The translations under genes were made by a program, and so were the position numbers. From Mobula birostris (lineage: Eukaryota), in the NCBI RefSeq assembly GCF_030028105.1, contig NC_092377.1, positions 97,966,865-98,030,864 of the forward strand: a DNA stretch of 64,000 nucleotides, written 5' to 3'. Position 1 is the stretch's first letter; each line of letters begins with the position of its first letter. The notes under the pieces are model-generated. The model did no database searches, had not been told where the DNA came from, and saw nothing but the letters and a program-made list of their open reading frames with translations. Positions 3,068 through 63,898 of this stretch are shown here, in pieces.

Positions 3068-4340
3068 AGACAGAGGAGCAGAATTAGATCATACAACCCA
3101 TCGAATCTGCTCCACCATTCCATTATGACTGATTTATTATCCCTGCAACCCTATTTTCCAGCCTTTTCCTCAAAATCTTTGCCATCCTTACAAATCATGA
3201 ACCTTTCAACCTCCGCTTTAAATATACCCAGTGACTTGATCTCCAGAGCCAATTGTGGCAATGAATTCCACAGATGCACCGCCCTCTGACCAAAAAAAAA
3301 TTGCTTCTCATCTCTGTTCTAAAGGGACATTCTTCTATTCTGATGAGATACCCTCAGGTCCTAGATTCCTCCACTATAGGAAACATCCTCTCCACATCCT
3401 CTCTATCTAGGCCTTTCAATATTCAATAGATTTCAATGAGATCCCTTTCATTCTTCTGAACTCAAATGAGTACAGGCCCAACATCATGGAACATACCTCA
3501 TGTTCCCCTTTGATTCTCAGCATCATTCTAATGAACTTCCTCTGGACCCTCTCCAATGGCAGCATATCCTTTCTTAAATAAGGGGCCCAATACTGCTCAC
3601 AATATTCTTTATCACAAACAAGAGAAAATCAGCAGGTGCTGGAAATCTGAGCAACAAACACAAAATGCTGGAGGAACTCAGCAGGCTAGGCAACATCTAG
3701 GAAAAGAATACAGTTGATGTTTTGGGCTGAAATCCTTCATTTTTTTCTGGGCACCAGACCTAACCAGTTTCCTTCACCACCACTCTCCTATCTGGTGTGA
3801 GGAGTGTGGTGTGAAGAGAGTGGTGATGGAAGGAAACTGGTTATGTCTGCTGTCCAGAAAAAAACCCCGAAGGGTTTCAGCCCAAAACGTCGACTGTTTA
3901 CTCTTTTCCTAGATGCTGCCTGGCCTGCTGAGTTCTTCTAGCATTTTGTGTATGTGGCACAATACTCTGAAGTGCAGTCTGAACAATGCCTTATAACAAC
4001 TCAGCATTACATCTGTGCTTTTACGTTCTAGTCCTCTCGAAATGAATGCTAACTTTGCTTTTGCCTTCTTTAACACTGACTCAACCTGCAAGTTGATTTA
4101 AGAATGGGGTGAAGAGAGAAATGGATCAGCTACTATGAAATGGTGGAGCAAGTTTCATGGGCTGAATAACCTAATTCTGCTGCTATGTCTTATGTTCTTA
4201 TGATAAGTTAACCTTTAGGGATTCCTACAAGAGGACTGTCAAGTCCCTTTGTGTGTCTAATTTCTGAATTTTCTCCCTATTTAGAAAATTGTCTACACCT
4301 TTATTCCTTCTACCAATGTGCATGACCATACACTTCCCTG
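3068..4340 (-). mobile_element. CR1 (HER1-like) LINE 3' fragment with two nested insertions
   Basis: Minus-strand ORF2 remnant (KKAKAKLAFISRGLERKS); CR1 tail at 3068. Interrupted by the Penelope palindrome 3609-3957 and a + strand CR1 tail ~4095-4204 flanked by aagtt. Confidence 0.9.
3609..3957. mobile_element. Palindromic Penelope terminal-repeat insertion with an extra internal inverted repeat
   Basis: Arms aaaatgctggaggaactcagcagg and cctgctgagttcttctagcatttt; TSD cacaatattct (3598-3608) / cacaatactct (3958-3968). Confidence 0.85.
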
Positions 4341-6662: not shown

Positions 6663-6892
6663 TAAGTGCTGGAGGAACTCAGCAGGCCAGGCAGTATCTG
6701 TGGAAGAGAGTAAACAGTCTATGTTACAGGCCAAGACCCTTCAGCAGGACTTCATTAGCAGGCCTAATAAAGGGTTTTGGCTCGAAATGTCTTCTGTTTA
6801 TTCTTTCCCATAGATGCTGCCTGGTCTGCTGAGTTCCTCCAGCATCTTGCGTGTGTTGCTTTGGATTTCCAGTGTCTGCAGATTTTCTCCTG
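6663..6892. mobile_element. Palindromic Penelope terminal-repeat insertion
   Basis: Two inverted arms of the tgctggaggaactcagcagg repeat, both with decayed hammerhead cores. Confidence 0.85.
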
Positions 6893-7923: not shown

Positions 7924-8020
7924 GTTCTAATGAAGGGTCTTGGCCTGAAGCATCAACTTTTTATTCCCCTACATAGATGCTGCATGACCTGTTGAGTTCC
8001 TCCAGCATTTTGGGTATTGT
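7924..8020 (+). mobile_element. Single-arm Penelope terminal repeat
   Basis: ctaatgaagggtcttggcctgaagcatc...catagatgctgc...gagttcctccagcatttt. Confidence 0.75.
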
Positions 8021-14753: not shown

Positions 14754-14872
14754 GTTCAAGCTGCTACCACCGTTTTTATGTCTATTGCAAGACTGTGTGC
14801 AAGGCTGTGCAGCCTGGGAAGCTAAGAGTACGATGCAATACTTGTAAGCAAGGAACATTGACTTTAGCAATG
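14754..14872 (+). CDS. PRKN: Parkin (RBR E3 ubiquitin ligase) internal coding exon, equivalent to human exon 4 (N-terminal part of RING0)
   Basis: Pyrimidine tract and acceptor (tttcatttgtccccttttatcttccag), donor ATG|gtaaga. 119 nt, phase 1 in and phase 0 out. Translates [40 protein letters not shown], matching human parkin [40 protein letters not shown] as recalled. Zn-ligand cysteines and the K161/R163 equivalents are conserved. Confidence 0.96.
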
Positions 14873-19958: not shown

Positions 19959-21194
19959 ATACCTCACTCTCAGCTGTGGACTCCTACCTAATGCTTGAAG
20001 ACAGAATAGTGATTCACGAACACTTCATTCAAAAGTACTCAATCAATTCCATCGTGGTTACCCGGGCATTAATCAATTGAAAGCCCTGGCGAGAAGCTTT
20101 GTGTACTGGCCAGGCATAGACCAAGGTATCATATCAGTATGCAAACAATGTACTCAGCTACCTTTGGCAGCAAAGAATCCAAGTAGAGCCGATCCACACC
20201 CATTCCTCAGGCTACCAGACCTTGGAGTCGAGTACATATTGACTTCGCTGGCCCAATCACGATTCTACCTACTTTGTCCCAGATGACGCCTATTCCAAAT
20301 GGCCAGAAGTATTATTTATGAAGTCAACAATGACAAATGCTACCATTCAACAGCTGCTGCAGATCTTCAGCCGCTTTTGGGATGCCAGAAACCTTTGTTT
20401 CTAACGGTGACACTCAATTCAGTGCACAGCAATTTGCAGCATTCTGCCTGAACAGCAGAATTATTCACATCCACTCACCCCCCATATCGTCCACAGTCCA
20501 ATGGCCATGCAAAGAGGTTTGTGGATACCTTCAAATGAAAAAGGGGAAATCTAAAATCAGGAAGGGAAGGAGCGTCGGCCAAGGCTCTTGACGCATTTCT
20601 GTTGATCTGTCGAATTACACCACATCTGGGCCTCAAGAGGAAGTCACCAGCTGAAGTGCTTTTGACAAGAAAAGCGACCAACATCCAGTCCAGCAGGTGG
20701 TCAGGTGCATAAGGGCAGCCACACAGATCTTGGCTGATGGGTGAAATCATTCAAGCCCGGAGCTGCAGTGTGGGCCAAGTAGTATCACAATGGGCAAGAC
20801 CCCTGGGTCCCAGATCAAACGAATATCAAACAAATGGGGAAAGTACTTTACAAAGTTACTGTAGACAGACATCGCTGGTGTCACCGTATCATCCAGTTGT
20901 GACCATGTGCTCTCGAAGGCAGAACTAGTTTGTCTGACAGATCATCAAACACAGAGCTGGACCTTCATCTGCTCCTGGAAGGGTTTGATTTAGTTGAACA
21001 AACCAACCACCAGCATCAGCACAGCTGCAAGCAACACCACAACACAGTGAGAGCCTGCAACTACTAGAAAGGACTGATTGCAAGTGTAAGCTGGTTGTTC
21101 CAATCCAAATCAACCCTCAGCTCAAATTCTACAGGTAATAATCTTCAACAGGGAGGCATTACAGCAAACTGAAACAACCAATACCTATTGTTCA

Positions 21195-21372
21195 CAACAG
21201 GAATTCTGCAGATGCTGGAAATTCAAGCAACACACATCAAAGTTGCTGGTGAGCGCAGCAGGCCAGGCAGCATCTCTAGGAAGAGGTATAGTCGACGTTT
21301 CAGGCCGAGACCCTTCATTAGTCCTGACGAAGAGTCTCAGCCTGAAACGTCGACTGTACCTCTTCCTAGAAG
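21195..21372. mobile_element. Young palindromic Penelope terminal-repeat insertion in the Gypsy 3' LTR
   Basis: Perfect 13-bp TSD tacctattgttca (21182-21194, 21373-21385); inverted arms meet at ~21320. Confidence 0.9.
21320..21355 (+). ncRNA. Minimal type I hammerhead ribozyme motif (Penelope-associated)
   Basis: AGUC-CUGACGA-AGA[GUCUCAG]CCU-GAAA-CG-UC^GACU: helix I AGUC/GACU, full core, weakened helix II, palindromic ACGU in place of helix III. Confidence 0.7.
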
Positions 21373-21461
21373 TACCTATTGTTCAACTGATAACCAATCC
21401 TAGGCCGAATTGGTCATTGTTCCAATCAAAAGTCTTGAATGTTCCTTGGGTAAGCCATTTA

Positions 21462-21762
21462 CCATTGCGTTGGCGTATGGCCAAGTGGTTAAGGTGTCGG
21501 TCTAGTGATCTGAAGGTTGCTAGTTTGAGCCTCAGCTGAGGCAGCGTGTTGTGTCCTTGAGCAAGGCACTTAACCACACATTGCTCTGCGACGACATCGG
21601 TGCCAAGCTGTATCGGCCCTAGTGTTTTTCCCTTAGATAACATCGGTGGCATGTGGGCATCTGCTGGTCTTCCATACAACCTTGCCCAGGCCTGCACCCT
21701 GGAAAACTTCCAAGGTGCAAATCCATGGTCTCATGAGACTAATGGATGCCTATACTATAAAT
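21462..21762 (+). mobile_element. tRNA-CORE SINE with RTE-derived tail, in the Gypsy 3' LTR
   Basis: A box tggccaagtggttaagg, CORE-like gtgtccttgagcaaggcacttaac, 3' half shared with 27295-27490(-); TSD ccattta (21455-21461, 21763-21769). Confidence 0.85.
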
Positions 21763-23679: not shown

Positions 23680-23866
23680 GACCCTTCAGCAGGGAGGGTC
23701 TCACCTTTTACCTCTACCCCTCATCTTTTTTTCTCCAGTACTGCTGAAGGATTGCAGTCCGAAACATCAACCGTACTCTTTCCACAGATGCTGCCTGGCC
23801 TTCTGAGATCCCCCAGTAGTTTGTGTGTGTTGCTTGGATTTCCAGCATCTGCAGATTTTCTCTTAT
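23680..23866 (+). mobile_element. Penelope terminal repeat with upstream pyrimidine tract
   Basis: ccagtactgctgaaggattgcagtccgaaacatcaac (decayed hammerhead) then gatgctgcctggcc...tttccagcatctgcagattttctc. Confidence 0.8.
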
Positions 23867-43674: not shown

Positions 43675-44315
43675 TAACATGAGAAAGTCTGCAGATGCTG
43701 GGAATCCAGAGCAACACACACAAAATGCTGGAGGAATTCAGCAGGTTCGGCAGCATCTATGAAATAGAGTAAACAGGCTGAGACCCTTCATCAGGACTGG
43801 AAAGGAAGGGGGAAGGGAAGGAGGATAGGTGAAGTCAGGTGGATGGGACAGCTAAAGTGCTGGAGAAGAAGGAATCTGATAGGAGAGGACAGTGGACCAT
43901 AGGACAAACGGAAGGAGGAGGGGACCCAGGGGGAACTGATAGGCAGATGAGAAGAGGTAAATGGTCAGCATGGGGAATAGAAGAAGGGGGAGGGAAAAGA
44001 AATATGTTTTCCGGTGGGAGAAATCGATATTCATGCCATCTTGTGCCAAGGTGTTGCTTCTGCGCTCTGAAGGTGGCTTCATCTTGGCACAAGAGGAGGC
44101 CATGGACCAACAGGTCTGAACAGGAATAGGACTTGGAATTAAAATATTTGGCCACCAGGAAGTTCCACTTTTAGCAGATGGAGCTGAGGTGTTCGACAAA
44201 GCGATCCTCCAATTTACGATGGGTCTCACCAGTGTAGAGGTGGCTGCATCAGGAGTACCAGACACAATAGACGATCACAGCCAATTCACAGATAAAGTGT
44301 TGCCTCACCTGGAAG
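43675..44315 (-). mobile_element. Penelope-like element 3' end: GIY-YIG endonuclease remnant plus terminal repeat
   Basis: Minus strand QVRQHFICE..VIVYCV...LYTGET...DRFVEHL...FNSKSYSCSDLLVHGL...DGMNIDFS, then ccagtcctgatgaagggtctcagcctg and the repeat shared by the palindromes. Confidence 0.9.
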
Positions 44316-46095: not shown

Positions 46096-46300
46096 AAATG
46101 CTGGAGGGACTCAGCAAGCAGGCAGCATCTATGGAGAGGAATAAAGGGTCAAGCTTTCAGTCGAAGACCCATCACGAATAGTCTCAGCCTGAAACGTCGA
46201 CTGTTTATTCCTTTCCATAGATGCTGCCTGGCCTGCTGAGTTCCTCCAGCATTCTGTATGTGTTGCTTTGGACTTCCAGCATCTGTAGAATCTCTTGTGT
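46096..46300. mobile_element. Palindromic Penelope terminal-repeat insertion
   Basis: Inverted arms; right arm keeps gtctcagcctgaaacgtcgactg but has lost the CTGANGA box at the junction. Confidence 0.85.
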
Positions 46301-63683: not shown

Positions 63684-63898
63684 CAAAATGCTGGAGGAAC
63701 TCAGCAGGCCAGGCAGCATCTATGGAAAAGAGTACAGTCATCGTACAGTCCTGTACTGAGTCTGCCAAAGGGTCTCAGCCCATAACATCGACTGTACTCT
63801 TTTCCATAGATGCTGCCTGGCCTGCTGAGTTCCTCCAGCATTTTGTGTGTGTTGCTTGGATTTCCAGCATCTGCAGATTTTCTCTTGTTTGTGATTTG
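63684..63898. mobile_element. Palindromic Penelope terminal-repeat insertion inside a SINE head
   Basis: Near-perfect inverted arms; TSD aatactattttcaa (63673-63686) / aatactatcttcaa (63899-63912). Confidence 0.9.

Follow-up and report, generated by a model that had tools for sequence, protein, structure and literature searches.

The window, that is, the whole 64,000-nt stretch of DNA analysed here, contains a 178-nt insertion at positions 21195-21372 that is flanked by an exact 13-bp direct repeat, a match expected by chance at about 8e-7 with 49 offsets allowed. The insertion lies in an intron of a gene on the plus strand, named here from Pfam family PF17976. This family matches two plus-strand exons, one in the window and the other 140 kb further on (C9:98121601), and a third exon (C9:98188287), recognised by a motif, is presumably Parkin-like as well. 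The RING0 exons set the orientation of the gene, and the intact-core hammerhead motif of the insertion is indeed, as had been proposed, in the sense of the PRKN pre-mRNA. The features are collected in Table 1. Throughout, q denotes the window position minus 21194, extended along a long family copy (L113). On this scale the ribozyme occupies q95-q132, with a predicted cut at q99/q100, and the arms are followed from the tail side inwards, in the direction antisense to the element RNA.

Table 1. Features of the insertion, of its host gene and of related copies (window positions unless a C9 coordinate is given)
Feature	Position	Strand	Remarks
Host exon, part of Parkin RING0 domain	14754..14872	+	PF17976, E 5e-11; AG/GT ends
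Target site duplication (TSD), left copy	21182..21194	+	From sequence and empty site; last A possibly element-derived
Left arm, tail-bearing	21195..21318	- (element sense)	q1-q124; ends within the hammerhead core, at the A6/G5 step
Tail, about 30 nt, left arm only	21195..21226	-	Between the two priming sites of the family
Truncated hammerhead remnant (cut-site side, helix II, A6-A9)	21281..21318	-	By comparison with read-through copies
Inversion junction	21318..21318	.	1-nt T common to both arms
Right arm, tail-less	21318..21370	+ (element sense)	q133 down to q81; private changes at 21333 and 21339
Minimal type I hammerhead, whole motif	21319..21356	+	Predicted cut after C21351
Hammerhead helix I	21319-21323 / 21352-21356	+	5 bp, one G.U
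Hammerhead core	21324-21330	+	GAAA 21344-21347; ACGU palindrome 21347-21350 replacing helix III
Hammerhead helix II	21331-21343	+	Mismatch at 21333
Two bases matching neither Penelope family nor target	21371..21372	+	Likely untemplated
TSD, right copy	21373..21385	+	From sequence and empty site
Older relatives	3619-3930, 6667-6888, 7927-8007, 23736-23864, 43682-43900, 46099-46291, 63689-63887
Unlocked hammerhead copy	C9:98041616-98041745	sense	3-bp helix I; same intron as the insert
Unlocked hammerhead copy	C9 ~98190032	sense	Full helix I

The age of the insertion was assessed by comparing contigs of four sequencing runs (X1, X5, X10 and X13) with its right junction. An empty site with a single copy of the 13-mer is present in X10 (organism C) and X13 (organism E), whose contigs reach the left flank in the window. 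The site is filled in X5 (organism B, a single piece with one difference), and in X1 no contig piece spans the junction. The insertion is young, and either lineage-restricted or polymorphic; the exact repeat and the empty site in two related organisms bear out the original prediction of a young Penelope-like insertion with a perfect 13-bp TSD. The left arm differs from the family majority at three positions in q32-124 and the right arm at 2/53 positions; the left-arm variant at q59 is found in at least 40 genomic copies. The copy is an ordinary member of its family, young and unconserved, and it is probably inert.

The two inverted segments (21275-21321 and 21324-21370) are 47 nt long with 89% complementarity, and the hairpin that they form has a folding z of -12.8, with none of 200 shuffled sequences folding equally well. 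The arms mismatch at 3/44 shared positions, differences that would fit later mutation without proving that both arms had one template. The 5' end of the right arm (q132-133) falls at the edge of a hot spot of arm ends in the family, described below. The genome holds 175 occurrences of the junction motif of the insert, most of them with a GT microhomology of 2 nt, and the junction recurs in 11 of the 30 best-matching loci; tail and internal variants differ among these 11. Because copies with the same junction fall in different subfamilies, the junction arises repeatedly and independently. Identical junction motifs are clustered at C17:31.97-32.59 Mb and C11:57.3-58.4 Mb (seven and eight, respectively, among the places listed), which suggests that large segmental duplications inflate the junction counts.

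Examination of the plus-strand motif shows the core CUGANGA / GAAA / UH, a helix I in the 4-5 bp range and a palindromic 15.2-16.2 (CG in 30/38 young copies), and thus a minimal type I motif in which the self-complementary ACGU stands in for helix III, as originally described. Helix II, including G10.1-C11.1, is intact in full-length copies, with G.U or G-C, and has one mismatch in the insert in either register; at position 11.1 most young copies have U, and 6/38 have C. The description of a full core and helix I with a single helix II mismatch agrees with both sequence and folding. The catalytic fold reaches -1.2 / -0.4 kcal/mol in the insert, compared to -5.6 / -7.0 in a full-length copy (L175), and the isolated motif prefers a non-catalytic hairpin in both (-6.1 in the insert, -11.0 in L175). 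Within the hairpin of the whole insert, the computed probability of helix I falls to about 1e-28, in keeping with the claim that the inverted partner locks the motif. Unconstrained cofolding of two motifs did not yield a catalytic dimer, and its result was not used. Because the private change at 21333 breaks helix II, the plus-strand hammerhead is probably inactive, whether locked or not.

The second hammerhead of the original prediction fared differently. Its CUAAUGA on the minus strand is a chimera of the junction, because the left arm leaves the family sequence at 21318, where the right arm begins: the left arm supplies A6-A9, and the complement of the right arm three further bases. This motif has neither C3-U4-G5 nor the 5' strand of helix I, so that its helix I cannot form and it has no complete core. 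The insert thus holds one hammerhead and not two. A strict motif descriptor gave three matches in 264 kb of the Parkin region, all in the Penelope family. An Rfam scan returned no hammerhead family at the locus, nor in two unlocked full-length copies. It gave mir-5681 at 21280-21365 (46 bits, against a gathering threshold of 88), whose consensus agrees with the arms over nine nucleotides at one end (9 nt) and at some inner positions; such below-gathering microRNA matches at the insert are likely a response to any long hairpin, an old Penelope origin of mir-5681 being less probable.

The family to which the insert belongs is very abundant. Exact matches number 78,994 for a 23-mer adjoining the ribozyme, and a 26-mer spanning the 5' half of the ribozyme has 47,907. 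A search of the 4.0-Gb genome with the insert gave 3,089 first-look candidates, and 40 of these were scored. Apart from the insert, the 29 best-matching loci are all head-to-head inverted, with variable junctions and right-arm lengths, and in most of them the duplication is visible by eye. Thirty loci picked by the tail motif range from palindromes of about 180 bp up to kilobase arms that enter the nuclease gene. Exact repeats of 7-16 bp were found at 23 of 31 arms examined, indicating a TSD of variable length. The head-to-head layout is a normal insertion product of this family and not a designed ribozyme pair.

The full unit of the parent element, derived from near-full-length copies, is about 3.7 kb (3,014 + 709 nt). 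Its reverse transcriptase (RT) frame in L113 spans 793 aa and contains a YIDD motif; PF00078 matches it with E 4.4e-5 and 23.7 bits, below the 29.6 cut-off. The C-terminal GIY-YIG nuclease is matched by PF01541 with E 2.6e-4 in another copy (L119) and 0.014 in L113, both under the cut-off. A CxxC lies between GIY and YIG, and a CX4CxxC linker finger directly precedes the nuclease. Partial tandems, in which an upstream copy of the 3' end is reached, occur in 12/40 near-full-length copies (7/25 in one set). A PDB sequence search gave no match at E 1. By these motifs the parent is an endonuclease-bearing Penelope-like element (PLE), probably of Neptune or Nematis type, a placement drawn from motifs and layout given that both Pfam scores fall short of the curated cut-offs.

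Like the Neptune and Nematis elements described in PMC8557442, the parent has one frame with RT and C-terminal GIY-YIG, a CxxC between GIY and YIG and a CX4CxxC linker finger, CX2-5CxxC being common to both clades. It also shares with them the partial tandems, the inverted truncated copy, a tail of 30-40 bp and the pseudo-LTR hammerhead. Unlike in that description, the insert retains no more of the repeat than its terminal 124 + 53 nt, and the first in-frame Met of the parent lies about 40 nt beyond the tail and not inside the ribozyme. An inverted truncated copy, a one-sided tail and a pseudo-LTR ribozyme are the textbook layout of endonuclease-bearing PLEs (PMC8557442, PMC3846280), and very short intronic insertions through 5' truncation are also known (PMC9977147).

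The ribozyme itself resembles the metazoan PLE minimal hammerheads of PMC4209133 in its full core, 4-5 bp helix I, extra base before helix II and palindromic 15.2-16.2 without helix III. It differs in a shorter helix II (3-4 bp), broken in the insert, in the U that most young copies have at 11.1, and in the truncation of the second motif. Dual minimal hammerheads on opposite strands, 100-700 bp apart, had already been noted in the same work, in which single minimal motifs did not cleave and dimers cleaved little; in PMC11167929, cleavage was seen only with protein.

Two other kinds of hammerhead-bearing sequence were considered. Like the non-LTR retrozymes (10.64898/2026.07.22.740005), the insert is non-coding, Penelope-derived and carries a type I hammerhead. 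Those consist of head-to-tail units each with a full ribozyme, whereas the insert belongs to a dispersed, head-to-head kind with a TSD; it was rejected as a retrozyme, being a single inverted insertion that does not contain two or more head-to-tail full-hammerhead units. Like the domesticated intronic hammerheads of amniotes, e.g., that of RECK (PMC6155905), its motif is of type I and in the sense of the host intron. Unlike these, which are conserved across classes, it is absent in two close relatives and already mutated, and the empty site in organisms C and E led us to reject domestication.

The way in which the insert was made was approached through a census of arms. It took the first 100 C1 matches to a motif located on the ribozyme's tail side, so that it is blind to the arm end; the motif misses starts after q70, such as q81 of the insert. 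Arm starts are bimodal, with 40/100 at or before q7 and 56/100 at q25-45. The right-arm start of the insert is later than usual; five of the 30 best-matching loci, the insert included, start after q60. In all 28 adjacent inverted pairs, exactly one arm carries the tail. Arms of one insertion agree at three subfamily sites in 80/95 comparisons, versus 64% between insertions, and by type of pair the agreement is 43/48 for short, 34/42 for long and 3/5 for mixed pairs. Arm lengths tend to be paired (16 short-short, 7 long-long and 5 mixed; Fisher p 7e-4), and their rank correlation is not significant (rho 0.28, p 0.15).

The start, tail and subfamily data fit two-site priming from both cut strands on one source RNA. 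The GIY-YIG nuclease would nick both target strands 13 bp apart, the first cDNA being primed at the tail site (q1) and the second further in, at q81 here and usually at q25-45. Both cDNAs would copy uncleaved element RNA across the cut site of the ribozyme, one halting at q124 and the other at q132-133, at the edge of the main stop zone. They would then be joined head to head at the 1-nt microhomology, and CpG decay and other changes would follow. Two-site internal priming on both cut strands has been described in vitro for an anole element (PMC11167929), and the inverted layout together with two-site internal priming on uncleaved RNA is published (PMC8557442, PMC3846280, PMC11167929). The anole Poseidon element PAc is similar in that it cuts and extends both strands of the target, has a tail delimited by two internal priming sites and uses mainly uncleaved RNA as template. 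It belongs to a different clade, Penelope/Poseidon elements being without the linker finger. A fold-back from the tail arm was rejected as the general source of the second arm, since in many pairs, as in the insert, the arm without a tail exceeds the other in length.

On this evidence we put at about 0.88 the probability that the insert is a young, short, inverted Penelope-like copy in a Parkin intron, formed by twin priming, with a hammerhead that is likely an inactive passenger. A quite different origin, by whole copying of a MITE-like or retrozyme-like non-autonomous unit from a master that was already palindromic, would account for the junction motif common to 175 copies. These stand against about 48,000 read-through arms, however, and junctions, arm lengths and duplication lengths are all variable; subfamily variants differ among copies with the same junction and often match between the two arms of one copy, and there are no tandem ribozyme units at the locus. 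We regard such a master as very improbable.

The original prediction further proposed that the sense hammerhead, one of two, could cut the Parkin pre-mRNA and may be tolerated through the lock of its inverted partner. The lock is strongly predicted by folding and the orientation is correct: in the host pre-mRNA the left arm would be made first and capture the emerging right arm, a capture predicted to keep the ribozyme from ever folding. The mismatch in helix II and the dependence on a dimer partner or on protein would silence the motif anyway. Five further young arms lie in the 264-kb Parkin region, each in the sense of the gene, together with one antisense partner arm. Two of the five, both sense and in Parkin introns, have an intact core and perfect helix II without an inverted partner. 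Because such unlocked, intact sense copies exist in Parkin introns, locking is unnecessary for persistence, and the idea that it explains tolerance is left unsupported by better-folding copies that persist in the same gene. The chimeric nature of the minus-strand motif and the failure of single minimal motifs to cleave in the experiments of PMC4209133 also argue against this proposal, which we consider very improbable. A weak genome-wide bias against unlocked copies may remain compatible with the small Parkin sample. The copies at C9:98041616 and C9:98190032 are better candidates than the insert for affecting the Parkin pre-mRNA.

The distribution of arm ends in the family is the feature that we consider of modest interest, the copy itself and its layout being of known kinds. 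In the census only 1/99 arms ends at the cut site (q97-103). At q129-132, 17/83 arms end (18 before one older-subfamily copy that diverges there was dropped), followed by 1/65 at q133-136 and 7/64 at q137-170. The ratio of end rates at q129-132 is 16 (p 1.6e-10), for a 4-base window picked after the data had been seen. Ends beyond about q200 were excluded as unreliable, with G-run indels. Genome-wide, 60,248 arms match q109-129, of which 40,938 reach q135 (32% lost) and 36,627 reach q141 (10.5% lost over an equal base count). Inspection by eye of the 36 drop-outs among the first 100 gave 24 true ends, six mutated read-throughs, five older subfamilies and one unclear case, in a sample that overlaps the census and is not independent of it. 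Tail-bearing and tail-less arms both end at q129-132. Among upstream repeats of near-full-length copies, 11/12 run past q131. The census loci among which the pile-up is seen are L071-L153 and L199-L218.

These data indicate that the templates are likely uncleaved, with about one-fifth of the cDNAs stopping where helix I begins. A template starting at the cut site was rejected: besides the single arm of 99, the corresponding symmetric junction occurs only 61 times, several of them in one C17 cluster, a rarity found although a 6-bp palindrome favours this junction. The circle model expects templates beginning at the cut site. The scarcity of ends there agrees in vivo with one in vitro study in which uncleaved RNA is the template. 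The arm-end statistics bear on the role of Penelope hammerheads and add a sharp and testable boundary. No account of an arm-end pile-up was found in the accessible portions of the literature. The available part of the PAc study (PMC11167929) reports cDNA starts and not an end pile-up; its Fig. S2 (genomic copies aligned to the template RNA) and the alignments of PMC4209133 could show one, or could include the present family.

A short transcript and a roadblock on a long one are about equally good explanations of the pile-up, and each falls somewhat short of an even chance. The former would be a minority, non-autonomous template RNA of about 131-135 nt, made up of the ribozyme and the priming tail and starting with the initial bases of helix I, with both cDNAs running off its 5' end; the insert would be one of its products. 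The drop from 17/83 to 1/65 just after q132 and the ending of arms with and without a tail, which makes the stop position-specific, are consistent with such an RNA, as is the pairing of short arms with short arms. Long arms also pair with long ones, however, so that the pairing may reflect coupled synthesis. None of the 11 upstream repeats that pass q129 ends at the stop zone (p ~0.07 if the rate were the same), a point in favour of a short template and against an intrinsic pause. The initiator-like hexamer TCAGTT at q137-132 was counted on the same side. Against a short RNA, a C templated by the cap is not in excess after q131 (16 C, 21 G and 8 T by eye, in 45 informative rows of 100). The Penelope element of D. 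virilis starts inside its own repeat (PMC2377424), as the short RNA would. That q131 is the sole 5' end of the transcript was rejected, given the 11 of 12 upstream repeats that continue past it.

With a roadblock, the template would be the long transcript and the enzyme would be released at the 5' edge of the ribozyme, by a protein-clamped ribozyme region or by splicing factors on the upstream pyrimidine tract and AG. The passage of about four-fifths of the arms through the zone is in keeping with this, and the stop coincides with the closure of helix I and adjoins a pyrimidine tract with two AG sites. Moreover, the ribozyme of the anole element folds only when protein-bound (PMC11167929), and in D. 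virilis Penelope the 5' end of helix I is also where an intron ends (PMC4209133). A template hairpin would, however, be expected to halt the enzyme at the 3' side of the hairpin, near q95, and there is no excess of ends there. The cDNA hairpin sought at the stop zone by folding is weak (-3.0 kcal/mol), not the strong one looked for. Arm ends are followed by the TSD or a few extra bases and not by an upstream exon, which also led us to reject splicing of such an exon to the AG at the ribozyme edge. In L175 and other full-length copies, a pyrimidine-rich stretch, two AG sites and the initiator-like hexamer abut helix I upstream.

We propose, tentatively and as somewhat less probable than its negation, that the hammerhead, rather than being cut, marks the 5' boundary of a template of about 131 nt, whose first base is that of helix I and which the Penelope enzyme would mobilise without cleavage; it would be the source of about one-fifth of the arms, including the insert. 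If this is true, the short template would be a SINE-like solo mini-Penelope responsible for some ten thousand arms, and cleavage products would not be templates.

Several further observations concern the relatives and neighbours of the insert. The window holds seven older relatives (72-83%), several of which are short head-to-head pairs joined near the ribozyme. The older subfamilies keep the ribozyme and diverge right upstream of helix I, whose outer pair is C-G in them versus U.G in young copies. In one old copy, the arms are separated by a spacer (3740-3868) that is itself an inverted repeat of unrelated sequence, about 125 bp in size. The N-terminal coding region of L113 contains a 183-bp direct repeat, 91% alike, that encodes a Pro/Ser-rich stretch (L113:7507-7902), and L113 is nested in an older relative, itself located between two inverted copies of another RT-coding repeat. 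About 90 bp to the right of the insert lies a different high-copy repeat (21476-21760) with very deep contig cover. ARAGORN found no tRNA gene in it, and its weakly tRNA-like 5' part (Rfam tRNA, E 1.5) suggests that it is likely a tRNA-derived SINE.
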